From an uncultured Holophagae bacterium (GTDB lineage Bacteria; Acidobacteriota; Thermoanaerobaculia; Thermoanaerobaculales; Sulfomarinibacteraceae), in assembly GCA_963797055.1 (NCBI GenBank), contig CAWCOD010000016.1, positions 27,736 to 91,735 of the forward strand: a stretch of 64,000 bases of DNA, written 5' to 3'. The stretch's first letter is position 1, and every line of letters starts with the position of its first letter. Below are positions 2,078 through 63,559 of this stretch, piece by piece. The position numbers and the translations under genes are program-made. Below the pieces are notes generated by a model, which was not told the DNA's origin, ran no database searches, and saw nothing but the letters and a program-made list of their open reading frames with translations.

Positions 2078-2090
2078 GGCAGCTAGTATC

Positions 2091-2548
2091 TTGAATTCTC
2101 AGTTTTGAATTTTGAATTCTGAATTCCCCGCCCGCCATTCGAATTTCGAAATTGCAAGCAATCCGGGTGGGCGCGATGAATCAGTGAATCGAGGAACGCC
2201 CGGGGATCCCTCGAGCGGTTCGTCGACCGTCAGGGCCGCACAACGTCTTATACCGGGCAACTGCCGGGAAGCGCCATGGGGAGAATCGGCGCTTTGAACC
2301 CACGAAACCGCGCCGGACATCGTGAGAAGCCACTCGCTGCGCTCGCTCAGGATGACAGCGGCTGCGATTCGGGCGGGCGGGGGAGAATTTAAAATTGAGA
2401 CCTCCACCGGCCCACCCGTTCTCTCGGGGGGAGGGGGTGGCAATCTGCAATCTGTAATCTGCAATCTGCAATCTGTAATCTGTAATCTGCAATTCGTAAT
2501 AGAGGGTTGGGTGGGAATTCAAAATTGAGAATTCAGAATGAAGAATTC
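2091..2548. repeat. Intergenic mosaic of GB-STR modules plus a half GTCATCCTGAGC-family element
   Basis: AT-rich GAATTC-type array 2091-2127 and C-box 2126-2136. G-boxes at 2165-2172, 2371-2383, 2425-2440 and 2504-2515. Nine heptamers (TGCAATC/TGTAATC) at 2438-2500 and a GAATTC-type array at 2516-2548. CGCTCGCTCAGGATGACA lies at about 2338-2357. Confidence 0.85.
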
Positions 2549-2559
2549 ACCCGGCATCT

Positions 2560-3123
2560 TCAGTCAACAGGAACCGGCCGCATCTCCTGCCACTTCGCCA
2601 CCATGAGCTCGAGGGCGGCCTGGATCTCCTGCTCCGCGTCGTCCGGGTCCTCGGGTACGAGGCCGACCACCGTGCCGCGCCACACCACCATCCCGGTGGC
2701 CATGTCCCAGATGTCGATGATCAAGGTGCCTCGGGGATAGGTCCTGACCTTCTGGCTGTAATCTCCGGCGTCGGCTCCCCAGGCCGGGTCCCACTGCCAT
2801 TCAGGCCCATAGTCATAACCGTAGCTCGCCGCGTCGAGCCGGACCAGTCCCGTGACTCTGGTGTGGTAGGTGACCAACAATTCTGGATTCATGTCGTCCT
2901 GAACAAGACCGCTTTTCACGAGGTGGTACTCGATGGCGTTCTTGACCTGCGAGTGGAGCAGGGGGTGGTCCTCCTCGAGCGAGGTCTCCGGCGTCGGCAC
3001 CCAATCAAAGGTCGAGTAGCTGCCCGGGGCCACCGCGCGGTCGTAGTCGATGTAGACGATCTGAGCACCGACCACCGGCGTCAGCGACACCATAACGAAC
3101 AGCAATGTCAGTACCTTCACCAT
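2560..3123 (-). CDS. DUF4136-like secreted/lipoprotein (paralog 1 of 3)
   Basis: ATG at 3123 preceded by GGGAGG. Signal peptide MVKVLTLLFVMVSLTPVVGAQ. Shares YDRxxxFxxYxTFxW, HxxxKNAIEYxL and GTLxIDIWD motifs with 11637-12209 and 35705-36256. Confidence 0.75.
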   Translation of the reverse strand: MVKVLTLLFVMVSLTPVVGAQIVYIDYDRAVAPGSYSTFDWVPTPETSLEEDHPLLHSQVKNAIEYHLVKSGLVQDDMNPELLVTYHTRVTGLVRLDAASYGYDYGPEWQWDPAWGADAGDYSQKVRTYPRGTLIIDIWDMATGMVVWRGTVVGLVPEDPDDAEQEIQAALELMVAKWQEMRPVPVD

Positions 3124-3192
3124 GCAACACCTCCCTGCGGCCTGCCCTTTCGCGATCTTCCTGCAAGGGTAGCACCCCTGCGGATTGAACCT

Positions 3193-3262
3193 CTGTGGTG
3201 CGGCCGTCTCGGCTGCACTCATGGCCTTTATTTAGAGCACGGATGCAGGCCAGAGGCCCGCT
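3193..3262. repeat. TJ element (double-hairpin repeat), slightly degenerate copy
   Basis: CTGTGGTGCGGCCGTCTCGGCTGCA, about 26 nt of spacer, then TGCAGGCCAGAGGCCCGCT. Confidence 0.7.
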
Positions 3263-3356
3263 CGATAAATCCTGTTCATCCCAAGCGAGCGAAATGGCCG
3301 CGAGTCGAGGGATCCCCCGGGCTCTCCGGAGGGACGCTCAGCCCACTCACGGCTCT

Positions 3357-3415
3357 CCGGATGGGTGGGGGTCTTTGTTCTTTGTTCTTTGTTTTTCGTT
3401 CTTTGGTCTTTGATC
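3357..3415. repeat. GB-STR module (G-box + CTTTGTT/TTCTTYG array)
   Basis: GGATGGGTGGGGG followed by tctttgttctttgttctttgtttttcgttctttggtctttgatcg. Confidence 0.8.
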
Positions 3416-3418
3416 GAG

Positions 3419-4599
3419 CTACGCTCCCAACGCCCTCAACAACACACCGCCGAAACGGCTGACCACCGCGGTGAGCACAGCGGCAATGGCCACGCTGGTC
3501 ACCACCACGATCAGCACTTCGCTGGCCAAAACCGCCCGCACCCTACGGCGCGGCGCACCGATCTTGCGCATGGTCTCGATCTCGCGACGACGCAGCCGCA
3601 CCGAGAGCGCGAAGACCAGCGCCGCGGTGGCGATGGTCGCCAACCCAAGGCCCAAGCTCACAGCGAACATGGCGTTTCGGACCGAGAACATGGTTTCCAC
3701 CAGATCGTCCACAACCACCCGAGGCACCACCATCTGCACTGACTGATCGGGCTCCTGGTAACGGCCGCGCAGCACCACGCCCGACTTGCGATCCACGGGA
3801 ACGGCGAGCACCGCATCCACCGGGAAACCCTCGGGGTCGCCGTGGAAGTGGAAGGAATCGATGTTGTCGGGCGTGATCTCGGTGTAGGACAGCACCGAGG
3901 CATTAGCCACCACGTTGTCCTCGGTGCGGGACAGCACCCCGCTGGCCGCCTCCGGAGCCCTCACGTCCTGGTGGCCATGGGCCAGACCGGCGATCACCCA
4001 CGCGGTCTTGAGGTCGACAAAGACGGCTTCGTCGTCGGGGGTGCCCGTGGGAGCCAGCACCCCAACCACCGGCATCTTGAGCGGGAAGCTGCCGGCCACG
4101 TCGAAGGCGCTGGTGGGCGTCGACAACACGTGATCGCCCGCTCCCACCCGCAGGGCCCGAGCCGCGTTGTGACCCACAATGCACTCGCCGAGCATGGCGA
4201 AACGGCGTCCGGAGGCCACCTCGAGCCCTCGAAAATCGAGGTAGTCGAGGGTGGTGCCGACGATGCGGTGACCCCGGACTTCGTACCTCAAATGGAGCGG
4301 TATCGCTCCGGCGAGACCCGAATCCGCAACCATCTCGGACTCGGCGAACGTCGTTGGATCCAGCGACGGCTCACGGAAGTACAGCGCGCCTAGGGTCAGG
4401 TCCACCGCGCTGCCACGGGCTCCCGAGAAGCAGCGGTGTCTGCGTCGGCGCGGGCCGTGAGTGCCTGCGCCGCCTCCCGCACCACCACCTGCAGGGCGGC
4501 GGGAAGGAAGAGAATCAGACTGATGGAACCGATCAACACCGCGGTCTTGCCCCGGTTGAACCGCAGATACCGCCACGCCAAATACAGCACATCACTCAT
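3419..4599 (-). pseudogene. ABC transporter permease, FtsX/MacB-like, reading frame disrupted near the 5' end
   Basis: The N-terminus (4396-4599, MSDVLYLAWRYLRFNRGKTAVLIGSISLILFLP...) is in one frame. The remainder (3419 to about 4420, GARGSAVDLTLGALYF ... C-terminal FtsX TM bundle) is in another. The intermediate frame reads TPLLLG. Span is 1181 nt (mod 3 = 2). Start overlaps the ATPase stop (ATGA). Confidence 0.7.
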
Positions 4600-5382: not shown

Positions 5383-7529
5383 GGCACCACCACCCGATCC
5401 TCGCTCTCGAGCTCGACTCCGGAGATCTTCCAGCGATCACCTTCAGGCCGCAAAGTGAGCATCCCGTTGTATGTGTTCTGCCGATGGTGGACGTGCTGCA
5501 GGTGGCGCACCCTGGCGACGACCATCCACCGGACGTCGTAGGCGAAGTCCTGCCCGGCCACAGCCACATCGAGCGGCTCGCCGATCTCGAGCACTCGGAC
5601 ATCACGCACGGTCACCTCAGCTCCCTCCCGCGTGCCCGCCGTCAGCCTTCGTCGACTGTCGAGATAGAGATCGTCCACGAGCTCTCCGGTGACGTTCCGC
5701 TCCAGAGTGTCGTAGAGCTCGTCCTCATCGGACAGATTGAAGGCGTGGTAGGTCTCGGACAGCACATTGGTCACCACCCGGCGGGCGCTCTCGCCCTCAG
5801 GGGCCCGAGGTTCGAAGAACGGATTGCTGACGACCACCGTGCCGAAGGGTAACAGGAGGAAGGCTGCGCCGAGCAGCAGCCAGTGCGTGACCAGTCGCCT
5901 CTGCTCCACCCCCAGCTGCTTCAGGACGCGCCCCCGCCGTGGCCAGAGAAGCACCGCAGCCACGACCAGCAGCATCGACAGCACCGGGATTCGGAGCAAC
6001 CCGAGCGCCGCCTCGGTGACCACCCGGTTGTCGAACCAAAGGCGGTAGTCGGCCAACCGCCACAGCACCGCCACCCCGCCGACCGCAACGCCCAACACAC
6101 GAATCCACCCGGTCATGGGCGTGATCGGGGAAATCCGTGACACCGACAGGCTCGCGTAGAGGAGGGACGTCGCCGTCAGCACCGCGCCGACCGCAACGCC
6201 AGTGGATTTGGACACATTCTCCACGAGCTCGAGCCCGGTGGACCACCCGTGGGCCACGACCGCGACCGGTACCACGACGAGCACCCACCGGGACGGGAGA
6301 GGCCGGCCAACGGCCAACGCCGCACCGAGCAGAAGCAATGTGCCGATCACGATCACTCCACCCAGGGGGATCGGGTTTCCAAAAAGACCCGGCACCAGTC
6401 CCGACAATGCCAGCATGCCGAATCCGGCCACGACCCATCGCCCGGCCTTGCCGGCCAAAAACAGGGTCGGCCCCAACACCAACGCCAAGAGCGCCAGCTC
6501 CACCGGCGACCTCTGCAGTCCGCCCATCAGCTGGCCAAGAGAAACAAACCGGGCCAGCACCATCCCGGTTGCCAGTCCACCGATCACGTATCCCATCGCC
6601 GTATCGGCCCGCGGCAGCCACCTGCCACCGGCCGCGAGGGTCAACACCGTCCGCAACTCCATCGCCACCAGCGAAATGACGACCAGACCGACGCCCACTC
6701 CCACACCGAAGGACACCAGCGCCACAAGCTGCTCGGCACTGGAGAGGCCGTCCGGCGGCAGAGCTTCGGGCCTTGCCCCTCCGTAGAGCAGGCCCAGGAG
6801 CAACGTGGCGGGCCACAGTGGCTGGAGCCAGCCACGCCAGCGCTCACCTCCCCCGGCCAGGGCCACCGCCGGGACCGCGGCGGAGATCAGAGTGAAGCTG
6901 TCGCGTACCAATGGATGCACCAGCAACCATCCGTTGCCGCCAAGCCACTGTGCCACCCCATGGGCCACGGCGAAGACAGCGGCACCGGTGAAAATATTCC
7001 GCCAACGGGCGCCACCGGCTACGACGACGAGGAGAAGCAACCAAAGCGGGAACTGGCGCAGGGTTCGGCGCATGGCCTCGACCGCTGCGTGTCCTCCCAA
7101 GGACGGCAGCGACGGCGGCAGCGGCACCAGAAAGCCGGGCCGCGATGGGCGCAAAATTCCCGTATATTCGCGCCCATCGAGGGTGGTGAGGGTGAAGGCC
7201 AGGTCAGTCTGAGTTCCCAGAAGACCCTCGATCAACACCGCCTCACCGGCCAACGACGGCGGGTCGCAAACGACCGTCCAGGCGGTGGTGTGGCCTACCG
7301 ACGAAACGCTGATGTCACGCTCGGTGATGTCGCTGCAAGTGGGTGGCAGCAGCGGCTCGGCGCGCAACTTGCGCCCCTCGACGATAGGAAGGGTGAAGAT
7401 CACCTCGTAGGTTCCCGGCTCGGTCTCCTCGAGGGTGAGTCGGGCCGGGAACGCAACGTCCGCGTTCACGGTTCCCGCGGCGGCCCAAAGCACCACCAAC
7501 GCCAGGATGACAGGCTTGAGCCTGGTCAT
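5367..7529 (-). CDS. Large polytopic membrane protein; N-terminal region HupE/UreJ-like (family-2 type), C-terminal soluble domain
   Basis: 720-aa ORF with a signal peptide. ARLTLEETEPGTYEVIFTLP...PPTC resembles the HupE_UreJ_2 N-terminal signature (from memory only). More than 10 predicted TM helices and a hydrophilic ~150-aa C-terminus. Overlaps the PPIase stop by 4 nt. Confidence 0.45.
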   Translation of the reverse strand: MTRLKPVILALVVLWAAAGTVNADVAFPARLTLEETEPGTYEVIFTLPIVEGRKLRAEPLLPPTCSDITERDISVSSVGHTTAWTVVCDPPSLAGEAVLIEGLLGTQTDLAFTLTTLDGREYTGILRPSRPGFLVPLPPSLPSLGGHAAVEAMRRTLRQFPLWLLLLVVVAGGARWRNIFTGAAVFAVAHGVAQWLGGNGWLLVHPLVRDSFTLISAAVPAVALAGGGERWRGWLQPLWPATLLLGLLYGGARPEALPPDGLSSAEQLVALVSFGVGVGVGLVVISLVAMELRTVLTLAAGGRWLPRADTAMGYVIGGLATGMVLARFVSLGQLMGGLQRSPVELALLALVLGPTLFLAGKAGRWVVAGFGMLALSGLVPGLFGNPIPLGGVIVIGTLLLLGAALAVGRPLPSRWVLVVVPVAVVAHGWSTGLELVENVSKSTGVAVGAVLTATSLLYASLSVSRISPITPMTGWIRVLGVAVGGVAVLWRLADYRLWFDNRVVTEAALGLLRIPVLSMLLVVAAVLLWPRRGRVLKQLGVEQRRLVTHWLLLGAAFLLLPFGTVVVSNPFFEPRAPEGESARRVVTNVLSETYHAFNLSDEDELYDTLERNVTGELVDDLYLDSRRRLTAGTREGAEVTVRDVRVLEIGEPLDVAVAGQDFAYDVRWMVVARVRHLQHVHHRQNTYNGMLTLRPEGDRWKISGVELESEDRVVVPWKPI

Positions 7530-8687: not shown

Positions 8688-8935
8688 GCGGTGCCAGGGC
8701 CATCGCGGTGCCAGGGCCGACACTATTGACTCCCAGCTTCGTCGCGGTGCCATCGTGGTGCCAGGGCCGACACTTCTGACAAGCAGTATTGAGCGACAAC
8801 ACAATTATCCCTGGAGAAGGCGAAGAAAGTGTCGGCCCTGGCACCGGGGGTCATATCTCCCCTTAGAAGGTGTCAGAGGTGTCGGTCCTGGCACCGATGG
8901 GAACGATGGAGTTTTAGGGCTCGGACCTCAGGACC
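8688..8935. repeat. PH element, right copy (inverted relative to 121-345)
   Basis: GTGCCAGGGCCGACACT at 8708-8724 and 8758-8775. Reverse copies at 8827-8844 and 8877-8894. The reverse complement aligns with 121-345 at roughly 85-90% by eye, with one extra hairpin unit. Confidence 0.85.
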
Positions 8936-11091: not shown

Positions 11092-11145
11092 GTGCCAGGG
11101 CCGACACTGGTGACAATCTTCGCGCCAAAGTGTCGGCCCTGGCAC
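11092..11145. repeat. PH element, minimal single hairpin
   Basis: GTGCCAGGGCCGACACT (11092-11108), about 19-20 nt loop, AAGTGTCGGCCCTGGCAC (11128-11145). Perfect 17-bp stem. Confidence 0.85.
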
Positions 11146-11150
11146 CCTGA

Positions 11151-11302
11151 GAACGTTAAACGTTAAACGTTGAACGTTCCCTCCCCCCAACCGGGGCGAG
11201 GTGGGCGCGTATGGCGGGCGTACCGTCCAACGGAGTCGATAGTCCAAAGTCGATAGTCAAAGTGAAAGTCGATAGTTGAAAGTTGAAAGTTCCCACCCTA
11301 CC
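11151..11302. repeat. GB-STR modules (AACGTTR array; GTCGATAGT/GAAAGTT array)
   Basis: gaacgttaaacgttaaacgttgaacgtt followed by C-box CCCTCCCCCC. gtcgatagtccaaagtcgatagtcaaagtgaaagtcgatagttgaaagttgaaagtt followed by C-box CCCACCCTACC. Confidence 0.8.
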
Positions 11303-11580
11303 TCCTGGAGTGCAAGGGCGCGATGATTGGGCGTGCCGGGCAACCTGCCGGCGGCAGCGGTAGTGGCCGTGGCCGGGTGCGGCGGCCGTTTCCGATCCTG
11401 CGAGTGGGATCAGCGGCCATACGGCCACCCGCTGGTGACGGCTGGTCACCGCGGCCACCGGCCGCGAGTAACCGCGGGGAGCGCGATGGGGAGAGGGGAG
11501 GGGAGAGCGTTAACGAGGCTCGGGATCGGGCTCGAGGCTCGAGGCGGCGATCGCGGTCTCCGGCGATCTCGATGCTCGTC

Positions 11581-11636
11581 ATCTTGCATCTTGGATCTTG
11601 GATCTTGGATCTCGTATCCGGGCGTGTGGGCGGGCG
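11581..11636. repeat. GB-STR module (CTTGSAT array + G-box) abutting a stop codon
   Basis: atcttgcatcttggatcttggatcttggatctcgtatc followed by CGGGCGTGTGGGCGGGCG. Ends at the TAG of 11637-12209. Confidence 0.8.
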
Positions 11637-12209
11637 CTACTTTCCCTTGGCCTGCTGAGCCCTCTGCTTCTGGAACTGTTTGACCATCTTCTTGAGCGCC
11701 TTGTCGATCTGTTTGTCCGCCTTCTGCGGATCCTCGGGTACCGTCGCGCTGGTCGATCCACGCCAGACGATCTCGTTGGTCTCGGCGTCCCAAATATCGA
11801 TCACCAGGGTGCCGCGTTCATAGGTCGTGGCAGTGGTCACCGAATTTCCCATGGTGCCGCCCCAATAGGGATCCCAGCCCCAGCCGGGACCGTAGCTGTA
11901 TCCGTAGGTGGTGGTGCTGAACCTGACATCCTCGTAGGTGCCGACGTGATAGGTCACGTAGAGATCCGGATCCGTCGGATCCTCGACACCACCTCCCTTG
12001 GCCAGGTAGTACTCGATGGCGTTCTTGATGCGCGAGTGCATGAACGGCGACGCACCCTCGATTGAGGTCTCCGGGGTCGGTCCCCAGGCAAAGGTCTTGT
12101 ACGAGTCGAAGTCGGCGTTGCGGTCATAGTCCACGTGGACCGACTGTGCCGCCGCCGGCAGGGCGGTCAGGGCCAGGATGATTGCCATTCCAAAAAATCT
12201 CTTCACCAT
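11637..12209 (-). CDS. DUF4136-like secreted/lipoprotein (paralog 2 of 3)
   Basis: 190 aa with GGAGG RBS. Signal peptide MVKRFFGMAIILALTALPAAAQ. Same motif set as paralogs 1 and 3. Confidence 0.75.
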   Translation of the reverse strand: MVKRFFGMAIILALTALPAAAQSVHVDYDRNADFDSYKTFAWGPTPETSIEGASPFMHSRIKNAIEYYLAKGGGVEDPTDPDLYVTYHVGTYEDVRFSTTTYGYSYGPGWGWDPYWGGTMGNSVTTATTYERGTLVIDIWDAETNEIVWRGSTSATVPEDPQKADKQIDKALKKMVKQFQKQRAQQAKGK

Positions 12210-12226: not shown

Positions 12227-13711
12227 TCAGTCCGGGTCGGTTCGACGAATTCTCTCGATCAGTTTGCTGGTGGAGTGTTCCGGCAGCAGCCGCACGAGCT
12301 CCACCGAGCCCCCGTAAGACTCCACGAGCTCTCGACCCACCACCTCATCCAGCTGGTAGTCTTCGCCCTTCACCAGGATGTCGGGACGGATCAGTTCGAG
12401 GGTCTCGAGTGGCGTGTCTTCGCCGAAAATCGTCACGGCATCGACGCAGTCCAGCGCGGCCAGCAGTGCCGCCCGCTCTCCCTGCGGCATCAGCGGCCGG
12501 TCGTCGCCCTTGAGCCGCCGCACCGAGTCGTCGCTGTTGATGGCCAGCACCAGCACATCGCCGAGCTCGGCCGCCTCGCGCAGCAGCGAGAGGTGGCCGA
12601 TGTGCAGCAGATCGAAACAGCCGTTGGTGAACACGACCCGTTTGCCCTGGAGACGCCACGACTCCACCTGGGCCGCCAGTCCGGTCCGGCTCATGACCTT
12701 GCCGGCCGGCCGCTCGCCCAGCGCGGCCAGAAGATCCGACGGTGGCACGGCCGCGGTGCCCACCTCGCTCACCGCGATCCCTGCCGCAACGTTGGCGAGC
12801 CGGCTGGCATCCTCCAGCCCGGCTTTCGCACCGAGACCGAGCGCCATGACCGCCACCGCGGTATCGCCGGCGCCGGTGACGTCGAAGACGGCACGGCGCT
12901 GAGCCCGAATCACGGTGAAATCGCCTTCCCGGGGCACCACCAGCATGCCCCGCTCGCCGAGGGTCACCACCAGCGCTTCGAGACTGGTGCCGGCCAGAAC
13001 GCCACGCGCGGCGTCGGCGACGGCGTCGTCGTCGGCCGAACTCAGGTCACGCCCGGTCGCCATTTCCAGCTCACGGAGATTCGGCGTGACGACGGTGGCG
13101 GCGCCGTAGGCCTCCAGATCCGGTCGTTTGGGATCCACCAAAACCGGCACATCCACCCGCCGCGCGGCCGAGATCAACAACGCCGTGGAATGATCGGTGA
13201 GAAATCCCTTGGCGTAGTCGCTGAGGATCAGCACATCGGGCGGATCTCCCGCCTCCAACTGCGCCACCAGTCCGGCGACAACGTCGTCCGGACACGGACG
13301 TCCGTCCTCCCAATCAAGACGGAGCAGCTGTTGGCGCTGGCCGAGAACTCGGACCTTGTGAGTCGTCGGCACGTGCTCCATACGCCCCACGGCACGGGTA
13401 TCGATTTCGTTGTCGGCGCAGGCTGAGAGCACCCTGTCGCCCGCGCCATCGGTTCCGATCACGCCGCATAGACTGGCCCTGGCCCCGAGAGCTGCGATCT
13501 GACGCGCCACGTTTGTCGCACCGCCGAGGCGCCACATGCGTTCACGGACATGCACCACCGGCACCGGCGCCTCGGGCGACACTCGCCCCACATTACCCAC
13601 GATGTACTCGTCCAGCATGATGTCCCCGGCCACCCAGACGTGGAGCTCGGGGAAACGGGAAACGATTTCCGCCAGCCGGTCCTCGGCGTGATTCTCCCGG
13701 CTCATGTCCAT
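12227..13711 (-). CDS. hldE: Bifunctional D-beta-D-heptose 7-phosphate kinase / D-beta-D-heptose 1-phosphate adenylyltransferase
   Basis: 494 aa. N-terminal ribokinase-like domain (GGATNVA, TGAGDT) and C-terminal cytidylyltransferase domain (VFTNGCFDLLHIGH). Confidence 0.85.
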   Translation of the reverse strand: MDMSRENHAEDRLAEIVSRFPELHVWVAGDIMLDEYIVGNVGRVSPEAPVPVVHVRERMWRLGGATNVARQIAALGARASLCGVIGTDGAGDRVLSACADNEIDTRAVGRMEHVPTTHKVRVLGQRQQLLRLDWEDGRPCPDDVVAGLVAQLEAGDPPDVLILSDYAKGFLTDHSTALLISAARRVDVPVLVDPKRPDLEAYGAATVVTPNLRELEMATGRDLSSADDDAVADAARGVLAGTSLEALVVTLGERGMLVVPREGDFTVIRAQRRAVFDVTGAGDTAVAVMALGLGAKAGLEDASRLANVAAGIAVSEVGTAAVPPSDLLAALGERPAGKVMSRTGLAAQVESWRLQGKRVVFTNGCFDLLHIGHLSLLREAAELGDVLVLAINSDDSVRRLKGDDRPLMPQGERAALLAALDCVDAVTIFGEDTPLETLELIRPDILVKGEDYQLDEVVGRELVESYGGSVELVRLLPEHSTSKLIERIRRTDPD

Positions 13712-14308: not shown

Positions 14309-14318
14309 CACTCCTCCA

Positions 14319-15999: not shown

Positions 16000-16038
16000 C
16001 CCAGCCCGAGCCCGAGCCCGTTATCGTTACCGTTACCG
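16000..16038. repeat. STR composite (CCGAGC)n-CCGTTAYCGTTACCG
   Basis: cccagcccgagcccgagcccgttatcgttaccgttaccg. Same composite at 36391-36430 and 39137-39166, and reverse-complemented at 20555-20604 and 46674-46712. Confidence 0.8.
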
Positions 16039-49440: not shown

Positions 49441-49557
49441 GGGTGAGAAGGAGTGAAGGGGAGAAGGGGAATGTGGCGATCCGGGCGGGAGGGCCCTCTC
49501 ACCCTCTCACCCTCTCACCTTCTCACCTTCTCACCCTCTCACCTTCTCACCCTCTCC
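49441..49557. repeat. Inverted STR pair (GGTGAGAAG-type versus CTCACCYT x8)
   Basis: gggtgagaaggagtgaaggggagaagggga (49441-49470) faces eight CTCACCCT/CTCACCTT units (49494-49557). The right array encodes the last residues (GRGEGEKVRG*) of the MFS gene. Confidence 0.8.
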
Positions 49558-51466: not shown

Positions 51467-51528
51467 CGTCCAACTCCTCATTCTGGTCGTGCCGCACGCC
51501 GCAAACCGCGGACAAAGCGGCTGGGTTC

Positions 51529-52134
51529 TTAATCCACCGTCTTATTCAGCTTCTTGTTCTTCCAATATTTGGTTCCGGCGATATCCGCACTGGCCATCAG
51601 GCCGCCCTTGGTGAGCTGGTAGATCGCGATGCCGTTGGTGAATGTCGTCTGGGCGTTGGCACCCTCAACGCCGGCGACGGCCTGCGCCCCGGCGTCGGCC
51701 TGCCAGCCGTTCTCCACGAAGTTGTAGAACGAGCCCTTGTCCTGAAAGAAGAAGATCAGGTCGTAGGACTGGCCGCCGATGCCGAACCCGACGCCCGCTG
51801 TCGCCATCTTCATGTAGAAGCGCTCGCCGGTCTCCTTGTCCACCGCGACACCGTTGCCTCCGCCTCCGGAGAAGACAAATGCGGCCTTCATGCTCCGGAA
51901 CGCCGCCCAACCGTAGGCCTTGTCGAAAAGCGTATCTGACTTGATGCTGGTGGCAAGGAGCCTCTCCAGACCCTGGTCCGCGATTTCATCGCGCCTCAGC
52001 CTTTTGGCCTCCCGCTCCACCTCTCTCCAATCGTCGCTGTCGGCGCCCTGCGCCCACGCCGTCGAACCCGACAGGAGCAGCAACAGCCCCACGACCATCG
52101 CACCGAGTTTCAGCCCGCAGTTTTTCTCAGCCAT
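51529..52134 (-). CDS. SYLF (Ysc84/DUF500)-like secreted protein, copy 2 (tandem paralog)
   Basis: ATG at 52134 after GGAGGAG. Same motif order as copy 1 (FSGGGGNGVAV...AGVGFGIGGQSYDLIFFFQ...GLMASADIAGTKYW). Confidence 0.5.
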   Translation of the reverse strand: MAEKNCGLKLGAMVVGLLLLLSGSTAWAQGADSDDWREVEREAKRLRRDEIADQGLERLLATSIKSDTLFDKAYGWAAFRSMKAAFVFSGGGGNGVAVDKETGERFYMKMATAGVGFGIGGQSYDLIFFFQDKGSFYNFVENGWQADAGAQAVAGVEGANAQTTFTNGIAIYQLTKGGLMASADIAGTKYWKNKKLNKTVD

Positions 52135-52322
52135 CAGCTCTCTCCTCCACCGATTGGATGTGACCGACAGATGATACCTGCAGCCCATCGATACCGCAAC
52201 GAAACTCTCTGGCTCCCGCTTTCGTTCCCGTCCCGGAAACGACCGTCAAGGTGACCGGAAACACCGCATCCCCTCCTCGACAGATCGATACCAGGAGCCC
52301 CGCAGCGCACACCGCCTGTCCG

Positions 52323-52671: not shown

Positions 52672-52749
52672 TTTGTAGCGCAGGCGTCTCGGCTGCATCG
52701 CTCGCTTCGATTCAAAGCAAGACTGCAGGCCGGAGGCCTGCTCCACAAT
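52672..52749. repeat. TJ element
   Basis: TTTGTAGCGCAGGCGTCTCGGCTGCA, spacer TCGCTCGCTTCGATTCAAAGCAAGA, CTGCAGGCCGGAGGCCTGCTCCACAAT. Confidence 0.85.
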
Positions 52750-52757
52750 GTCGATCC

Positions 52758-52841
52758 GGGTGGGTGGGGGCCAATTCGCAATATCGCAATTCGCAATTTT
52801 CAAAGGGCGGGCGGGGAGTCTTCGTTCTTCGATATTTGATC
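52758..52841. repeat. GB-STR modules abutting the kinase stop codon
   Basis: GGGTGGGTGGGGG followed by ccaattcgcaatatcgcaattcgcaatttt. GGGCGGGCGGGG followed by agtcttcgttcttcgatatttgatc. Confidence 0.8.
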
Positions 52842-55561
52842 TAGATCGGTCGGTCGGCATAGCGCTCCACGGCGCGGCCGAGGACTGCGACCAGCGCCCC
52901 CACCAGACCGAGCACGAGCACCAGTCCGATGGCCAGGTAGCCACCCTGGGCGAACCACGCACCGCGCACCGTGGTCATGGGGAATGCGGTCAGTAGACCG
53001 CACGCGAGCAACGCTGCCACCAGGGTCAGAAGACCGAACCGGTAGAGCAGGACGAGCACCATCGCGCCACCGACCACCCCGAGGGTGGCGATGGACAACG
53101 GCATATGGGTGCCGCGTTCGATGCCGAAGTTCAACGCGATCAGACCGGCGAAGGCGCCCCACGCCAGCCACCGCGGCTTCAGCCACCGGCTCAGCAGGGC
53201 GAAGAGCACCGCCGACAGCAGTCCACCAACAATGGCACCTTCAACCTGCCCCAGCGCGGCGGCCAGCATGGAACCGAGGCCCACGGTCGCGTTGAGCTGA
53301 TCCGCGCCCAAAAAGCCCCAGGTCGGGTCCATACCAAAAGCCGCGACGACGATCCGATCCACCTCCACCGCCATCGCCAGGACCGTCCCCGCCAGCGCGC
53401 CGACCAGCAGGCCGTATCCCACCGACCTGTCGATGACATCGCCCGCGAGCAATCGGTTCCAGGCGATCAGGGCCTGCGGTCGGTAGCGACGAACCAGGGG
53501 TTCGAGCCCGACGTAACACAGGCCCACCGCCAACGCTCCCAGACAGATATCCACCACAAAACCGAGCAGAGTCATGCCGGACGAAACCAGCGGGTGCTCC
53601 GGCCGGCCGGCAGACAGGGCCGCCGCCAGCAGTCCCACCACGAGCACCACCGCCGCCAGCACGCCGGCTCTCCTCAGATCGCTTCGGTCGTGCACGATGG
53701 AGTAAGCGCCAAGGGCGAAGGCCACCAGAACGATCAGCAGATACAACGGGGCTCGAACCCATCGCTCCAACCTCGCCCGGCGCCGCAGCTGCTCGTGTCG
53801 TGCCGGCGACTCCTGATCCACCGCCTCCGCCGCAAAGTAGACCGGCAGGCCCTCGAACGAGGCGGCCTGGACGTGGATCGTCGCCCCCGGCCGCCTCGGA
53901 TCGTCTGCCGTCCACGCCGCCCGCTCGTCGGAGGCAACCGGCAGGACGGCCTGGAGATCCGGCACCAGCTCGACCCCCTGGAGGCCCGCCGGCTCGAGGA
54001 GCAGTGACCAGTCAAAATCCTCCGAGTTGCCCACCACTCCACCGACCCTCGAGCCGAAGGACGTCCCGACATTTAAAAAGACCAGTTCACCGGTGGGGTC
54101 GAGCATCACGAAGAGCGGCTCCCTTGTGATCGCCTCGGCACGATCAAACTGTCCGAACAATCCTCCGGTATCGAAGGCCCGCGCCACGAAATCCGGTAGC
54201 GGCCGGGTTCCCTCTTGGCGATACCAGAACAGAACCCGGTCCACTGGATCCGCGGCAGCCACGTTGTCCAGAAAACCCCAATCGGCCGCACTCGAACCGT
54301 CCCCGAGAGTGAGATCATCCAGCAACCGTTCCGATTGGTCTGCAAGCACCTCCGGCGCCTTGAAACGACCCACGCCTTCTAAGACCGCCGACGGCTCGGC
54401 GAGCACCAGAACACCGGCGAGCAGGGCGGCAAGCACCACGACCAACAGCCAGGGGCTGGATCGTTTGAATGGCCGATCGATTGTGGCAGCGGCCACGATC
54501 TCCGGATTGACGAGTGCGCCCACCTCCACCGCCATGGCCAGCGGGTCCCCACCCGGCAGCTCGGCGGCCATGGCCAGAGCCGATGGCGGCCGATCTTCGG
54601 GCGCGCGGGAGATGGCCTTCATGATGACGCGCTCGAGCTGCGGGTCCACGCCGTCCACCAACTCGGAAGGCGGGGACGGTCTGTTTCGCATCTTGGCTCG
54701 GAAGATCTCGGTGAACCCCGACTCTTTAAAGAGCTTCTCTCCGGTGAGGAGCTCGTAAAGCACAAGTCCTGTGGCGTAGAGATCGGCGGTCGGACCCACT
54801 TCGCCGTCCGGGTTGAGCTGCTCCGGCGCCATGTAGGCGGGAGTGCCCGCGATCCCGTCGCGGTCGTCATCCTCCTTGGTCACAGCGATTCCAAAATCGG
54901 TGATTCGAACCCGACCCTCGCCGTCGATCATGATGTTGGCGGGTTTGAGGTCGCGATGAATGACACCCTTCGCGTGGGCCGCGGCGAGGCCGCCGCAGGT
55001 CTGATTGGCAATGTCCACCACCTTGTCCGACGGCAGCCGTCCGATGCGGGACAACAACGACGCCAGGTCCTCTCCATCGACGTACTCCATGGTGAAGTAC
55101 AGCCGATCGCCCTCGCTACCGACGTCGAAGACCCGGCATACCGCCGGATGGGTGACCTCCCGCGACAGCCGCACTTCCTTGAGCAGCCGCTCCCGCAGAT
55201 CGGGCCGGTAGCCGAGCACGAACTTGATGGCCACCGGGACGTCGAGCACGGTGTCGTGAGCTCGGTAGACCTCCCCCATGGCGCCTCGTCCCAGAAGCGA
55301 GATGATCTGGTAGCGGTCGGCGAAGACATCTCCCGCCGAGAACTCCTTTGTCTCGGCTGTGGGAGGCGGCGGCGGGGGTACAGGCTTCGCCATGACCCTC
55401 GACACATCGATGGTCGAATCCTCTCCCTCGAGCAGGGCCTCCACGATCCGGCGGAGCTCACCGTCGTCGGCGCATTCCCGGTCGAGGAAGAGTTCGCGCT
55501 CGGGCCCGTGCAGTTCCACGGCCCGTTCGAACAGTTCCATCGCCCGTTGTTCTCGATCCAT
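52841..55561 (-). CDS. Ser/Thr protein kinase with a large C-terminal ecto-domain and polytopic membrane region
   Basis: ATG at 55561. Kinase motifs VAIK, HRDLKPANIMI, DFG and GTPAYMAPEQ. A TM at about aa 390, a ~200-aa hydrophilic segment, then at least 8 further TM helices. Confidence 0.8.
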   Translation of the reverse strand: MDREQRAMELFERAVELHGPERELFLDRECADDGELRRIVEALLEGEDSTIDVSRVMAKPVPPPPPPTAETKEFSAGDVFADRYQIISLLGRGAMGEVYRAHDTVLDVPVAIKFVLGYRPDLRERLLKEVRLSREVTHPAVCRVFDVGSEGDRLYFTMEYVDGEDLASLLSRIGRLPSDKVVDIANQTCGGLAAAHAKGVIHRDLKPANIMIDGEGRVRITDFGIAVTKEDDDRDGIAGTPAYMAPEQLNPDGEVGPTADLYATGLVLYELLTGEKLFKESGFTEIFRAKMRNRPSPPSELVDGVDPQLERVIMKAISRAPEDRPPSALAMAAELPGGDPLAMAVEVGALVNPEIVAAATIDRPFKRSSPWLLVVVLAALLAGVLVLAEPSAVLEGVGRFKAPEVLADQSERLLDDLTLGDGSSAADWGFLDNVAAADPVDRVLFWYRQEGTRPLPDFVARAFDTGGLFGQFDRAEAITREPLFVMLDPTGELVFLNVGTSFGSRVGGVVGNSEDFDWSLLLEPAGLQGVELVPDLQAVLPVASDERAAWTADDPRRPGATIHVQAASFEGLPVYFAAEAVDQESPARHEQLRRRARLERWVRAPLYLLIVLVAFALGAYSIVHDRSDLRRAGVLAAVVLVVGLLAAALSAGRPEHPLVSSGMTLLGFVVDICLGALAVGLCYVGLEPLVRRYRPQALIAWNRLLAGDVIDRSVGYGLLVGALAGTVLAMAVEVDRIVVAAFGMDPTWGFLGADQLNATVGLGSMLAAALGQVEGAIVGGLLSAVLFALLSRWLKPRWLAWGAFAGLIALNFGIERGTHMPLSIATLGVVGGAMVLVLLYRFGLLTLVAALLACGLLTAFPMTTVRGAWFAQGGYLAIGLVLVLGLVGALVAVLGRAVERYADRPI

Positions 55562-55604
55562 GACGATTACGATACCAGTACACGGTCTTCCCCGTGCTCG
55601 GTCA

Positions 55605-55646
55605 CAGATCGAAGAACGAAGGACGAAGACCCCACCACCCTCCCGG
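55605..55646. repeat. GB-STR module (reverse orientation)
   Basis: cagatcgaagaacgaaggacgaagac followed by C-box CCCACCACCCTCCCGG. Confidence 0.7.
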
Positions 55647-55650
55647 AACG

Positions 55651-55715
55651 TCTTGGTAGCGCAGTCGTCCCGGCTGCGATTCTGGCCCTGATTCAGCGCA
55701 CGAATGCAGGCGAGG
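55651..55715. repeat. TJ element, truncated right arm
   Basis: CTTGGTAGCGCAGTCGTCCCGGCTGCGA, spacer TTCTGGCCCTGATTCAGCGCACGAA, TGCAGGCGAGG. Confidence 0.65.
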
Positions 55716-55837
55716 AAGTCGGTGCCAGGCACCGCCGCAGATGTGTCGACCTCGTACTACGACTCGATTTCGACGGTGCCTGGCACCGGGTGAGCGCGTT
55801 CGCGGCGCGCGTGAGGACGGCACGCCCGCTCACGGCG

Positions 55838-55990
55838 CCCCCCACCCTCCCAATGGGCGGGGGAATCTGCAATCTGCAATTCGCAATTCGCAATGGGTGG
55901 GCGGGCGGTGTTCCTTGCTCCCTGCCTATTGCTCCTGGCTGGGTGGGCGGCACCCACTTCAGAATTGAGAATTCAACACTGAGAATTGAC
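55838..55990. repeat. GB-STR mosaic overlapping the 3' end of the hydrolase gene
   Basis: C-box. GGGCGGGGG followed by aatctgcaatctgcaattcgcaattcgcaat. GGGTGGGCGGGCGG followed by tgttccttgctccctgcctattgctcc. CTGGGTGGGCGG followed by cttcagaattgagaattcaacactgagaattgac. Confidence 0.85.
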
Positions 55991-56796: not shown

Positions 56797-56874
56797 CTTT
56801 GTAGCGCAGGCCTCTGGCCTGCATTTGCTCGATCAGTCGAGGCCAGAATTGCAGCCGGGACGGCTGCGCTACAA
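56797..56874. repeat. TJ element (reverse orientation)
   Basis: CTTTGTAGCGCAGGCCTCTGGCCTGCA, spacer, TTGCAGCCGGGACGGCTGCGCTACAA. Confidence 0.85.
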
Positions 56875-57854: not shown

Positions 57855-57855
57855 G

Positions 57856-58075
57856 ACCCTCCCTCCCCAGGAATTCTAAATTCTCAATTTTTAGTTTTGA
57901 ATTGGCCCCCGCCCACCCCCAGCCAATCCGGGGGGTTGGGGCGATTCAGATTTCAAGATTCTCAGGTCTCAGTTTTTAATTCTCAGTTCTTAGTTTTGAG
58001 TTCCCCCCACCCGACCCGGACCGACCCGGGCGGGCGGGGGCAATTCAAAATTGAGAATTCAAAACCCAAAATTCG
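57856..58075. repeat. GB-STR mosaic filling the whole hydrolase-thiolase gap
   Basis: C-boxes at 57856-57868, 57904-57920 and 58003-58020. G-boxes at 57930-57941 and 58028-58040. Three AT-rich GAATTC/TCTCAG-type arrays. C-box/G-box pairs can fold as GC hairpins. Confidence 0.85.
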
Positions 58076-58085
58076 CCGTCCGATG

Positions 58086-59294: not shown

Positions 59295-59370
59295 TCGAGA
59301 CCCTCCATTACGGTTAAATGATGATTGTTAAATAAATTGGTGATCAATTCTCTCCCCTCAGCCCGTACCG

Positions 59371-59455
59371 GTCGGGCGGGGGAATATGCAATCTGCAATC
59401 TGCAATCTGCAATCTGTAATCTGTAATCTGTAATTCGTAATTCAATCGCAATTCG
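59371..59455. repeat. GB-STR module: G-box + (TGCAATC/TGTAATC) heptamer array
   Basis: GTCGGGCGGGGG followed by aatatgcaatctgcaatctgcaatctgcaatctgtaatctgtaatctgtaattcgtaattcaatcgcaattcg. Same unit as 2438-2500. Confidence 0.9.
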
Positions 59456-62004: not shown

Positions 62005-62142
62005 GCTTCAGCTCCGTATCGTTGGTGAATTAGGTCGGGTCGATGGCGAGCACGGCTCCACGACCCGACGATCGTAGGCCGTCACCCTCCTCCCCGCAAC
62101 CTGCGTGTCGTTCGCCATCTCCGTGACCTGTCCCCAAAATAG

Positions 62143-62173
62143 CTCAAATTCTGAATTCTCAATTCTGCAATCC
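62143..62173. repeat. AT-rich GAATTC-type STR array
   Basis: ctcaaattctgaattctcaattctgcaatcc. Confidence 0.7.
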
Positions 62174-62203
62174 TCCCCGGTCCCTTGCACAATCGATCGT
62201 CGC

Positions 62204-62281
62204 CTTTGTGGTGCGGCCGTCTCGGCTGCACTTTTAGGCTTCGTTCAACGCAAGAATGCAGGCCGGAGGCCTGCGCTCCAA
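62204..62281. repeat. TJ element
   Basis: CTTTGTGGTGCGGCCGTCTCGGCTGCA, spacer CTTTTAGGCTTCGTTCAACGCAAGAA, TGCAGGCCGGAGGCCTGCGCTCCAA. Confidence 0.85.
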
Positions 62282-62290
62282 CGATGCTCC

Positions 62291-62434
62291 GGGCGGGCGG
62301 CGGGCAATTCAAAATTGAGAATTCAAAACTCAAAATTCACGACCTTGCTCCTTGCTCCCTGTTCCTTCCCTCCGTCCGGCGGGTCGGGCATCTTGCATCT
62401 TGCATCTTGCATCTCGCATCTGGCCGGGCGGCGG
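62291..62434. repeat. GB-STR mosaic abutting the KASIII-like stop codon
   Basis: GGGCGGGCGGCGGG followed by caattcaaaattgagaattcaaaactcaaaattcac. ccttgctccttgctccctgttccttccctcc. GGCGGGTCGGG followed by catcttgcatcttgcatcttgcatctcgcatctgg, then CCGGGCGGCGG. Confidence 0.85.
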
Positions 62435-62435
62435 C

Positions 62436-63428
62436 TCACGGCATCCTGAACGCCGCGCCCGCCTGGTTGTAACCCACCCCGGATCCCACGAAGGCCACCA
62501 GATCGCCCGATGAGATCTTGCCCAACTCCAGGGCGTCATCCAGTGCGATGGGCACACAGGCCGATCCTGTGTAGCCCCATTTCTCCATCACCGTGTGGGT
62601 CCGGCTCATGGGTAGGCCGAGGTCGGCCATCACCAGCTCGATGGACGGCTTGCGCACCTGGGTGAAGATGGTGAAGTCGATCTCCTCCACCCGGAAGCCG
62701 CCGTTTTTGGCCAGCTCGCGCACCACCTTGGGCCAGCCCTCGTGGTTGACCTCGGGGGGATAGCGTTCGATCATCCGGACCGTGGTCCGCCCATCGGTCA
62801 CCGACTCAACGGTGGCCGGCTCGAAGGTGGCCCCCGAATAGATGCCCCAGTGCCCCTGGTAAGCGCCATCCGCCCGGTAGGCCGACGACACGAAGCCCGG
62901 GCTGTCGGCCGGCTCGAGCACCGCCGCCCCGGCGCCATCGCCGTAGAAGAAGATCATCGGGTCGTCCGGCGCCGCCAGCTTGTGCATCAGATACACGCCC
63001 ACCACCAGCACGGTCTTCAGATTCGGGTTGGTCGCGATCAACCCGGACCCGATGGCCAATCCGGTGGGAAACGAGGCGCAGGCGCAGCCCACGTCGAAGG
63101 TGCCCGCGTTGACCGCGCCGAGCTTGTGTTGCAGCACCACCGAGGTGGCCGGCGTGATGTAGTCGGGCGAGTCCGTGCCGACGATGACGAGGTCCACGTC
63201 CTCTGGTCTGCGGCCGGCTTTCTCCAGCGCTTTTTGCGCCGCCGGCAGCGCCACATCCGATGTCGCCCAATCGTCCGGCGCCCACCAACGGGTCAGGATC
63301 GAGGACGACTCCTCCATCTTGTCCACAAAGTCCGGGATGTGAGCGAACCGCTCGCGCAGCACGTCGTTATGGACCTCGATCTCGGGGATGTACCGCCCCG
63401 TCGAAACAATCGTTGCGTATCGGTTCAT
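62436..63428 (-). CDS. KASIII (FabH)-like protein retaining the active-site Cys but lacking the canonical His/Asn
   Basis: 330 aa. FDVGCACASF aligns with FabH FDVAAACAGF (Cys117). The positions aligned to FabH PHQAN and GNTSAAS read FTQVR and GYTGSAC. Confidence 0.7.
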   Translation of the reverse strand: MNRYATIVSTGRYIPEIEVHNDVLRERFAHIPDFVDKMEESSSILTRWWAPDDWATSDVALPAAQKALEKAGRRPEDVDLVIVGTDSPDYITPATSVVLQHKLGAVNAGTFDVGCACASFPTGLAIGSGLIATNPNLKTVLVVGVYLMHKLAAPDDPMIFFYGDGAGAAVLEPADSPGFVSSAYRADGAYQGHWGIYSGATFEPATVESVTDGRTTVRMIERYPPEVNHEGWPKVVRELAKNGGFRVEEIDFTIFTQVRKPSIELVMADLGLPMSRTHTVMEKWGYTGSACVPIALDDALELGKISSGDLVAFVGSGVGYNQAGAAFRMP

Positions 63429-63450
63429 ACCGCCTCCCGCGCCGGCGTCA

Positions 63451-63559
63451 GAAGGTGAGGGTCGGTGAGAAGTGTGAGAAGTTCCTCAGCCCAATCGAGT
63501 CTTCGAGTCGGTCGGGTGAATAATCCAGACTTCCTCCTTCTCTCCTTCTCACATTCTCC
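63451..63559. repeat. Inverted STR pair (GGTGAGAAG-type) between the KASIII-like and SDR genes
   Basis: gaaggtgagggtcggtgagaagtgtgagaag faces cttcctccttctctccttctcacattctcc across a ~48-nt spacer. Same unit family as 49441-49557. Confidence 0.7.

Follow-up and report, generated by a model that had tools for sequence, protein, structure and literature searches.

Tandem heptamer arrays anchored to a 15-nt GC box, and their foldback hairpins, in intergenic DNA of an uncultured Acidobacteriota lineage

The stretch of DNA analyzed in this work (the window, 64,000 nucleotides of contig CAWCOD010000016.1 from an uncultured sediment Holophagae bacterium) presented a G+C content of 62.7% and an ordinary chromosomal gene content, and its intergenic gaps held modules, each with a 15-nt GC-rich box next to a short tandem array whose units are usually 7 nt long. 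The gene model comprised 51 genes and split the window into 54.7 kb of coding and 9.3 kb of non-coding DNA. Genes for a sulfatase, a sigma-54 activator and a Ser/Thr kinase were included, as well as an operon-like run coding for a short-chain dehydrogenase/reductase (SDR), KASIII, a hydrolase, an acyl-CoA ligase, a thiolase, and two hydrolases. Rfam and tRNA scans of the window gave no matches, and two window proteins had no identical entry on record. The thiolase had 96-97% identical homologues in ENA and Joint Genome Institute (JGI) metagenomes and an 82% homologue labeled Candidatus Sulfomarinibacter kjeldsenii, and the best-matching locus for the sulfatase came from a 'Holophagae' metagenome-assembled genome (MAG); the window was therefore attributed to an uncultured Acidobacteriota lineage near Sulfomarinibacteraceae. 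A preliminary description, made from the letters of the window, had proposed that the larger intergenic gaps are built of such modules. Judged by eye, modules were present in about 23 of the 29 gaps of at least 100 bp, which bears this out, and every unit family that had been listed was recovered at its sites. The inverted-pair hairpins, the identity of G-box and C-box, and the nested hairpin-forming doublets of repetitive extragenic palindromic (REP) sequences, or REPINs, had passed unseen.

Tandem Repeats Finder returned 104 rows for the window. Period 7 predominated among the arrays with at least three copies (n = 33), followed by periods 6 (n = 10), 14 (n = 4), 8 (n = 3), 21 (n = 2), and 9 (n = 1); 33 arrays thus consisted of head-to-tail 7-nt units in at least three copies, as short tandemly repeated repetitive (STRR) sequences do. 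Base autocorrelation in non-coding DNA peaked at lag 7 (0.353 vs. a baseline of about 0.27) and again at its harmonics (14, 21, and 28), whereas coding DNA displayed the lag-3 codon signal alone. Short tandem arrays of 6-9-nt units, as first described, are therefore real, with 7 as the dominant period. The 'GAATTC-rich octamers' turned out to be heptamers (period 7 or 14), true 8-mers being found only at 49445-49556 and 63530-63558 and a 9-mer at 36346-36379. Arrays covered 16.0% of non-coding bases vs. 1.0% of coding bases, so that their supposed absence from coding interiors holds except for some GC-rich 6- or 9-mers. Most intergenic arrays had a G+C content of 12-47%, in agreement with the AT-richness ascribed to them, the exceptions being GATGCTG (57%) and CTGCTCC (64%). 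The same array families recurred at 3-14 sites in the window, with the over-representation in non-coding DNA that is typical of STRR-type sequences. Density of period-7 arrays was around 30-fold higher in the window (5.2 per 10 kb) than in controls (0.15 per 10 kb), which were 79 unrelated loci of similar G+C content (1.37 Mb) with 20 period-7 arrays in total; no array in these control loci adjoined a box. The controls were other matches of the sulfatase search; this gene is horizontally spread, and L001 was the sole useful relative.

The consensus of the G-box (CCGGGTGGGCGGGGG) and that of the C-box (CCCCCGCCCACCCGG) were exact reverse complements; both are one 15-mer in two orientations, present as a singlet or as an inverted doublet. 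The motif GGGYGGGYGG occurred 25 times in the window vs. 2.2 ± 1.7 times in shuffles. A stricter box pattern gave 39 sites, 30 in the non-coding and 9 in the coding fraction (around 19-fold enrichment in non-coding DNA), and a looser one gave 85 sites, 45 of them non-coding; the previous count of at least 40 boxes thus depends on the definition adopted. Flanks of arrays (12 nt) consisted of one base, G or C, at eight or more positions in 34% of cases vs. 5.4% of other non-coding 12-mers, and 58% of arrays had at least one such flank. In inverted doublets the C-box came first, 3-13 nt from the G-box, and a GC hairpin was formed. The 15-nt box itself lacked self-complementarity, as opposed to the 20-40-nt imperfect palindrome of REP sequences, and hairpins arose from inverted doublets only. 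Array polarity relative to the box was fixed within each family and modules were repeated at several loci, as expected from a modular vocabulary. Read in the sense of the flanking genes, solitary boxes were C-rich in 18 cases and G-rich in 11, a weak trend.

Cumulative GC skew dropped steadily over the whole 64 kb (C > G on the + strand), about two-thirds of the genes lay on the - strand, and 20 of 25 strict boxes were G-rich on the + strand despite the falling skew. The window represents a single replication direction, and effects of the replication strand and of the transcription strand on box orientation are therefore inseparable in it.

Many modules were foldbacks along the transcript, with the order array, C-box, loop, G-box, and complementary array. 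Two tandem foldbacks occupied the thiolase/hydrolase gap (57855-58085), with a minimum free energy of -107.7 kcal/mol on the sense strand (z about -6 to -8). Further inverted array pairs lay at 49441-49556 and 63465-63558, and the gap 2092-2549 was a single large split foldback carrying several inserts. Arms of the GAATTYT foldbacks paired with a complementary arm 10-130 nt away. Other modules were direct strings of box, array, box, array in one orientation (20375-20722, 52758-52841, and 55852-55989), without excess secondary structure. The clusters were extragenic, mosaic, of alternating orientation, and located between operon genes, as bacterial interspersed mosaic elements (BIMEs) are; modules between the genes of the apparent operon had already been reported in the preliminary description. 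At the two best-conserved gap positions (AMP-ligase/thiolase and thiolase/hydrolase), 11 of the 12 gaps from six genomes folded below shuffles (z from -2.0 to -8.8, with 9 of 12 at -3 or lower), their sequences being often unrelated or turned over. Of 18 orthologous operon gaps, 16 folded better as the sense strand than as the antisense one.

Copies of the same module were found at distant loci. Segments 2433-2500 and 59374-59441 shared 91% identity over 68 nt, with the order G-box, AATCTGC units, AATCTGT units, and AATTCGTAAT. The module formed by G-box+CAATTCAAAATTGAGAATTCAAAAC or G-box+CAATTCAAAATTGAGAATTC was present at six sites; the ending of the CTGCTCC family (...TCCTGG, then G-box) and that of the ATCTTGN family (...GAATC, then G-box) were invariant, and the modules at 20646 and 40990 had a 31-nt non-repetitive linker in common. 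The five-heptamer arm GAATTTT GAGTTTT GAATTCT CAATTTT GAATTG followed by a C-box was recovered at several window loci and in L081, L084, L162, and L170. To judge from their letters, the modules are dispersed homologous copies, beyond local slippage, because the GAATTYT arm keeps the order of its five heptamers across loci and genomes. A metagenome search with the 16-mer TGAATTGCCCCCRCCC, a pattern that proved too short, gave about 117 chance matches in unrelated contexts out of 120. True elements were limited to L162 and L170 (perhaps also L185), and none of the chance matches, which served as a negative control, had flanking arrays.

Operon-syntenic loci from five further assemblies were ranked by the amino acid identity of their thiolase to that of the window. 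L084, an independent JGI assembly, carried the same elements (96%), and L081 had boxes, arrays, and REPIN-like elements (96%); L082 and L083 had boxes and arrays (86%), L086 inverted heptamer arrays with almost no boxes (82%), and L085 inverted GC-rich hexamer arrays (81%). Densities per 10 kb in the window and L081-L084 ranged from 3.8 to 7.0 for arrays and from 3.8 to 7.6 for boxes; L001 had fewer arrays (2.1) and a similar number of boxes (6.4). At a coding nucleotide identity between the window and L084/L081 of mostly 0.82-0.91 (full range 0.73-0.95), orthologous gaps kept their position and general architecture, and their contents had changed. Units had been swapped (GCAGATT/ACAGATT vs. 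GAATTAC/GAATTGC), and array copy number differed between relatives at around 82-91% coding nucleotide identity. An [array+C-box] block was duplicated and a second hairpin lost in L084. In the SDR/KASIII gap, the window, L082, and L085 had inverted arrays of GAGAAGG type, and L081 and L084 a GAATTYT/box foldback. The comparison of orthologous gaps that had been suggested earlier thus revealed variation in unit type, copy number, and presence; the arrays of relatives were not identical, as the gaps had turned over, and the architecture was not confined to one contig, since it reappeared in L084, L081-L083, L001, L162, and L170. The best orthologue of the sigma-54 activator was 77% identical, too distant for comparing the 20.2-20.75 kb gap. 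On the sequences compared, the system is restricted to one lineage, Acidobacteriota near Ca. Sulfomarinibacter.

Paired inverted heptamer arrays without a box were also seen in more distant genomes. Those at L015 4787-4950 (a deltaproteobacterial MAG) and L055 2301-2399 (a Gemmataceae genome) turned up by chance among the control loci, so that the paired layout of arrays crosses phylum borders at low density. The inverted arrays of L086, a more distant acidobacterial relative, lay at 5731-5886, 11207-11310, and 13293-13410, and their central spacers all started with ATCGCA.

The gaps also held a REPIN-like element, a GTCATCCTGAGCG-type element, and a AAAGTGTCGGCCCTGGCACC repeat, families that had been partly merged into the single vocabulary first proposed. 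The REPIN-like element, of around 75-95 nt overall, was made of two inverted copies of TGTAGCGCAGCCGTCYCGGCTGCA; the REP unit of 24 nt, TGTAGCGCAG(CCGTCYCGG/GCCTCTGGC)CTGCA, matched 13 times in the window vs. 0 expected, each half forming a small hairpin of its own and containing GTAG at the 5' end. REPIN-like sites were located at 3190-3265, 16203-16280, 17719-17840, 40785-40900, 46436-46625, 49303-49412, 52673-52750, 55654-55720, 56799-56874, and 62206-62282, with inverted REP pairs, as required of REPINs, at 16203/16252, 17719/17770, 40788/40868, 49303/49388, and 56799/56847. REPINs were nested between C-box and G-box halves at 17.7, 40.8, 52.7, and 62.2 kb, the last one being missing from the orthologous loop of L081. 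The motif TCCGGGYGGGYGG followed three of eight REPIN-like copies by 7-8 nt.

A third repeat, TGTCATCCTGAGCG...GAAGGATCTGGGTGGGG, was found at 2330-2360, 16090-16200, 30555-30600, and 39240-39285 and in L081 at 12297-12360 and 13262-14330. It terminates in a G-box-like motif, and the GC box may be derived from this repeat or be its target. In L081, a 97-aa GIY-YIG gene (13690-13983) is flanked by thirteen tandem 36-nt copies, which suggests a link of the repeat to a GIY-YIG nuclease. The fourth repeat, AAAGTGTCGGCCCTGGCACC, had eight copies (sites at 162-330, 8706-8895, 11127-11146, and 55720-55788), mostly as inverted pairs 50-130 nt apart with a complementarity of up to 100%; no copy was found in the related loci examined.

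Regarding the distribution of modules along the window (a plus sign marks those read on the + strand), the first gap opened with five GAATTYT units abutting C-box CCCGCCCGCC at 2092-2136, the left half of the split foldback whose right half lies at 2504-2549. The same gap held a G-first doublet (2371-2417; G-box GGGCGGGCGGGGG, AT-rich loop, and C-box CCCACCC) and a direct 'beads-on-a-string' composite of G-box, 8.7 copies of GCAATCT/GTAATCT, G-box GGGTTGGGTGGG, and five copies of GAATTCA (2426-2549, +). G-box GGGTGGGGG followed by 5.9 copies of TCTTTGT (3359-3412, +) ended at the stop of minus-strand gene 3419-4576. Segment 11152-11306 combined 3.9 copies of AACGTTA, the C/G hairpin CCCTCCCCCC..GGGGCGAGGTGGG, AGTCGATAGT/GAAAGTT arrays, and C-box CCCACCCTACC, and 4.6 copies of ATCTTGG preceded G-box CCGGGCGTGTGGGCGGGCG directly after the stop of minus-strand gene 11637-12209 (11581-11635, +). 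The split foldback at 17656-17937 consisted of a left GAATTYT arm with C-box (17656-17710), nested REP/REPIN copies (17719-17840), and a right arm (17904-17937). The longest and purest array was (GATGCTG)x13.7 (20248-20346, +; 93% matches). It was followed in the divergent gap by a direct composite (20375-20722, +) of boxes, 12 copies of CTGCTCC/TTGTTCC, G-box, TTCTTCG array, (CGGCAA)3.5(CGGGCT)4.7, G-box CCGGGTGGGCGGGGG, a 31-nt unique segment, 3.4 copies of ATCTTGA, and G-box, with all boxes G-rich on the + strand and no hairpin formation (z about 0). Further on, 30412-30520 (+) contained 3.4 copies of ATCAAAG, two C-boxes, four copies of GGAACAA, and C-box CCCCACCCACCC; 33815-33954 contained four copies of AATTCTC with C-box CCTCCCGCCACCCG and then 6.9 copies of ACGTTCA; and 36324-36418 (+) contained a C-box, 3.8 copies of the 9-mer GTGTGGAAA, and 4.7 copies of CCCGAG with a GTTATC hexamer tail.

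The stretch 40696-41144 began with a C-box just after a stop codon and continued with REP/REPIN copies (40785-40900), G-box, the same 31-nt segment as at 20646, 4.3 copies of TCTTGGA, G-box, eight copies of TGCTCCT, and G-box. At 45135-45227, the C/G hairpin CCCCGCTCACCCG..GGGGTGGGTGGGCGG stood between 2.3 copies of CTATTCA and 3.7 copies of AATTCAA. REP copies with a G-box (46481) between them, a REPIN (46550-46625), G-box CCGGGTGGGTGG, a TCTTCGA array, and a (GGCAAC)(GGGCTC) composite made up 46436-46709. An 8-mer foldback occupied 49431-49556 (C-box, 3.2 copies of GAGAAGGG, G-box CCGGGCGGGAGGG, and 7.9 copies of CCCTCTCA), with arms 83% complementary. Segment 52650-52841, which reaches the stop of gene 52841-55580, comprised a C-box-like motif, a REPIN (52673-52750), G-box, 3.7 copies of CAATTCG, G-box, and a TCTTCGT array. 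At 55838-55989 (+), a C/G mini-hairpin preceded AATCTGC/GCAATTC units, G-box, CTTGCTCC units, G-box, and four copies of AGAATTG. The double foldback of the thiolase/hydrolase gap (57857-58075) read arm, C-box, loop, G-box, shared arm, C-box, loop, G-box, and arm. The C/G hairpin CCCCTCAGCCCG..CGGGCGGGGG was followed by four AATCTGC units, three AATCTGT units, and AATTCGTAAT at 59345-59455 (+). The split foldback at 62139-62435 had its left arm at 62147-62185, a REPIN at 62206-62282, and G-box plus right arm at 62289-62339, and then 3.6 copies of CCTTGCT, a small hairpin, 4.9 copies of GCATCTT, and a G-box at the stop of gene 62436-63428. An inverted pair of two copies of GTGAGAAGT and 3.8 copies of CTTCTCTC in the SDR/KASIII gap (63465-63558) was the last one. 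The (GGCAAC)n(GGGCTC)n composite hexamer array was present at five sites in both orientations (16000-16038, 20557-20602, 36391-36430, 39138-39166, and 46676-46709); its (GGGCTC)n part is among the few canonical four-tract G-quadruplex motifs of the window.

Some modules reached into genes. The stop and last five codons of gene 16206-17672 (glycosyltransferase family 9) and of gene 32108-33832 lay inside GAATTYT arrays (17656-17672 and 33815-33832, respectively); in both genes the original 3' end has therefore given way to an array. The longest open reading frame (ORF) of the Ser/Thr kinase (52841-55732; 963 aa) probably begins too far upstream, orthologues having 901-912 aa, and its first 50 codons or so hold a REP copy (55654-55720), a heptamer array (55606-55629), and a C-box. 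Elsewhere, a pair formed by a HigB-like toxin (PF05015, E 5e-16) and an HTH_3 antitoxin was detected at 29739-30331, in a module-poor stretch of 1.1 kb left unannotated by the filter on third-position G+C content with its 70-codon ORF minimum. Tandem Ysc84-domain paralogues, with 71% identical DNA, lay at 50891-51481 and 51529-52188, and the pair was kept in L081, L084, and L085.

Several roles and classes were discarded. The modules are not CRISPR arrays, as had been recognized from the start, since the 6-9-nt units are contiguous, without spacers, and had no Rfam match. A consensus scan of 44-64 kb gave no excess of sigma-70-like promoters at modules, and UP-elements were not enriched there. 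In the same interval, 21 sites combined a stem with a U-tract vs. 14.2 ± 4.0 expected, none of them at a box hairpin. The suggested supply of terminators and of UP-elements or promoters was thus abandoned, in view of this lack of enrichment and of the A-rich sequence after the stems.

Taking the results together, we give a probability of about 0.5 to the modules being a non-autonomous copy-and-slip repeat family that acts as stem-loop punctuation at gene ends. Its basic unit would be the short tandem array abutting one 15-nt GC box, either repeated head-to-tail, with boxes in between, or paired in inverted doublets, which are foldback hairpins of 60-120 nt with a GC-rich tip and AT-rich lower stems. 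Units would be copied to new intergenic sites, mostly right after stop codons and into each other's loops, and we infer as trans-acting candidate a REP-associated tyrosine transposase (RAYT) or IS200-type transposase recognizing single-strand hairpins, because REPIN-like elements nest in the same loops. Once copied, units would change fast, through slippage of replication by 7 nt at a time, through modules being lost or duplicated, and through replacement. The resulting stem-loops might stabilize mRNA 3' ends or partially insulate transcripts, as REP/BIME sequences do in E. coli operons, and the modules would supply variable spacing. The earlier idea of GC-hairpin punctuation is supported for about half of the boxes, which lie in stable C-box/loop/G-box stems, the rest being solitary.

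Several observations weigh against this copy-and-slip interpretation. Hairpins cannot account for all modules, as about half of the boxes are solitary, and the array-rich divergent gap 20187-20749 displayed no excess structure (z +0.3 and +2.1). Stems have no intrinsic-terminator U-tract; A-rich arrays follow G-boxes and T-rich arrays precede C-boxes. The bias toward the sense strand in operon gaps may be compositional or due to shared ancestry, and over the co-directional gaps of the window the sense strand folded better in 12 cases vs. 10 for the antisense strand; a role of the modules at the RNA level is possible, and RNA-level selection is not claimed because the whole-window count is just 12 vs. 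10. Inverted arms recall miniature inverted-repeat transposable elements (MITEs), and no target-site duplication was recognized at modules. No transposase or RAYT was found among the 28 larger of the 51 window proteins, which were searched against Pfam. Inverted arrays occur without a box in L086, L085, the more distant L015 and L055, and Geobacter, and box and array are therefore separable.

A different explanation takes the heptad arrays as platforms on which nucleoid-associated or global regulatory proteins bind cooperatively, one dimer to every 7 bp, with the boxes as boundaries or a second recognition element; modules would then be regulatory or architectural DNA instead of selfish repeats. 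The period-7 register is held across many unrelated units, with super-periods of 14 and 21 nt (21 bp corresponding to two helical turns), and arrays often have 4-8 units, at least four contiguous heptads being the functional site of the ribbon-helix-helix (RHH) ParB (omega) of pSM19035 (PMC9499535). Near-identical paired heptamer arrays of Geobacter metallireducens were proposed as IHF/HU sites (PMC2700814), a role which is itself putative. We nevertheless regard such platforms as unlikely: about a dozen families would require many cognate proteins or a sequence-blind reader, units and families are replaced at orthologous positions in close relatives, which is unexpected for operators, and most arrays lie behind stop codons, not at promoters. 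Somewhat more doubtful is that the arrays are a mutational by-product, with very stable GC hairpins or boxes stalling replication and 7-nt slippage growing arrays in place, neither transposition nor function being involved. This would agree with arrays lying within 0-3 nt of boxes, with rapid shifts in copy number and unit variants, with the recent look of very pure arrays such as (GATGCTG)x13.7, and with a general heptanucleotide bias of bacterial polymerases, proposed by Mrazek et al. (2007) in the summary given by PMC4679880. It leaves unexplained why distant loci and different genomes have multi-unit variant orders and unique linkers in common and why the same few unit families recur, and it is hard to reconcile with box-less inverted arrays in L086, L015, L055, and Geobacter.

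Punctuation by G-quadruplexes, in DNA or RNA, was another function suggested for the boxes, which are G-rich with GGG tracts; some + strand bias of solitary boxes (20 of 25 strict sites) and the folding in vitro of G-rich heptamer repeats of Xanthomonas and Nostoc as G-quadruplexes (PMC4692102) point in that direction. Boxes, however, have three GGG tracts only and fail the canonical four-tract motif (G3+, loops of 1-7 nt), which occurs instead in (GGGCTC)n and (GGGAGCA)n arrays or in genes, with just one motif overlapping a box pair (58003-58027). As a complementary C-box would compete for about half of the boxes by forming a duplex stem with them and solitary ones tend to be C-rich in flanking-gene transcripts (18 vs. 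11), we consider this function very improbable. There is hardly any chance that the modules are an assembly or sequencing artifact or a single-contig oddity. Although names such as contig_1903 mark the source and several relatives as long-read MAG contigs, the same modules stand at orthologous positions in the independent JGI assembly (L084), in five other contigs, which stem from two ENA samples, and in the unrelated short contigs L162 and L170, and tandem heptamers are no typical error mode of these platforms.

Considering the window together with Geobacter, the deltaproteobacterial MAG, and the Gemmataceae genome, paired inverted heptad arrays around a core could conceivably be a general cross-phylum class of bacterial foldbacks, with its own generating or mobilizing machinery or register-reading protein, that would have become box-anchored here and expanded to form much of the intergenic DNA. 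We view this as a long shot; if true, the genome would use a combinatorial 'heptad code' at gene boundaries. As a natural data set the lineage is unusually dense (about a dozen families, around five arrays per 10 kb), its arrays are tied to a box and to hairpin geometry, and turnover is visible in several related genomes, so that slippage, mobility, and protein-binding models can be compared. The arrays also matter when Acidobacteriota MAGs are annotated: at least two genes take their stop codons from them, and they inflate spurious ORFs and gene starts; they also break short-read assemblies, and their high turnover would give sensitive strain markers.

As for known systems, cyanobacterial STRR heptanucleotide arrays were reportedly described by Mazel in 1990, and to our knowledge nobody has explained the period of 7 or the role of such arrays in bacteria since that year. 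Nothing on repeats of this kind in Acidobacteriota or Sulfomarinibacter was found in the searchable library. Published heptamer repeats include TAACTGA in Beggiatoaceae, cyanobacteria, and Bacteroidetes (PMC4679880) and GGGNATC in Xanthomonas and Nostoc (PMC4692102), and long simple sequence repeats with units of 5-11 nt were surveyed in bacteria by Mrazek (2007), as summarized in PMC4679880. The window arrays share with them tandem heptamers of strongly intergenic location, many dispersed loci, a few families per genome, and variable copy number. They differ in being coupled to a specific 15-nt GC box, often in inverted pairs that form long hairpins, in units that are mostly AT-rich in a 63% G+C genome, and in their very high density.

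The likeness to REP, BIME, and REPIN sequences of Proteobacteria (PMC3116915) lies in short extragenic singlets and inverted doublets that form hairpins, mosaic clusters, nested insertions, and position between operon genes. In contrast, the window box is no imperfect palindrome, and the stems are extended by tandem heptamers, unlike those of classical REPs. Drosophila foldback elements have long inverted terminal arms of short tandem repeats around a variable loop; modules resemble them in these arms and in a loop able to carry other sequences, in architecture only and with no homology implied, the Drosophila elements being eukaryotic, kilobase-sized, and built of 10-31-bp units. Contiguous 7-bp units, direct or inverted, are also bound by the RHH ParB (omega) at parS of pSM19035, at least four being needed (PMC9499535). 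These heptads, as opposed to those of the window, are one unit family at few plasmid promoters with a known cognate protein and no genome-wide intergenic filler. The assertion that the modules belong to no described REP, BIME, or MITE family was thus overstated, their architecture being REP/BIME- and foldback-like and heptamer arrays being known (PMC4679880, PMC4692102).

That assertion is further weakened by the closest published description of arrays like those of the window, the paired heptamer sites of G. metallireducens, namely class 3 (and class 2) of the putative global regulator binding sites of Aklujkar et al. (2009; PMC2700814, Additional file 9). Class 3 comprises eight intergenic pairs of sites, one site on each strand and around 80-110 bp between the arrays; every site has five heptamers in tandem, of consensus MTYCTGA, and binding of IHF/HU was proposed for them (PMC2700814). 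The ATTCTGA unit, the five-unit arms, and the paired-inverted, foldback-like layout correspond to the GAATTYT arms of the window, which in another register read ATTCTGA/ATTCTCA/ATTTTGA and agree with MTYCTGA; this alignment is a resemblance judged by eye, short of established homology. Geobacter differs in density by about two orders of magnitude (eight pairs per 4-Mb genome vs. around five arrays per 10 kb), in having no GC box at the inner end and one main unit family vs. about a dozen, in the CTCCTGA variant, common there and absent in the window, and in phylum. The finding thus falls within known kinds, STRR-like heptamer arrays plus REP/BIME-like hairpin repeats; what is new is that arrays are coupled to a defined 15-nt box, that foldbacks have stems made of tandem repeats, and how many unit families there are and how densely they occur in an Acidobacteriota lineage.

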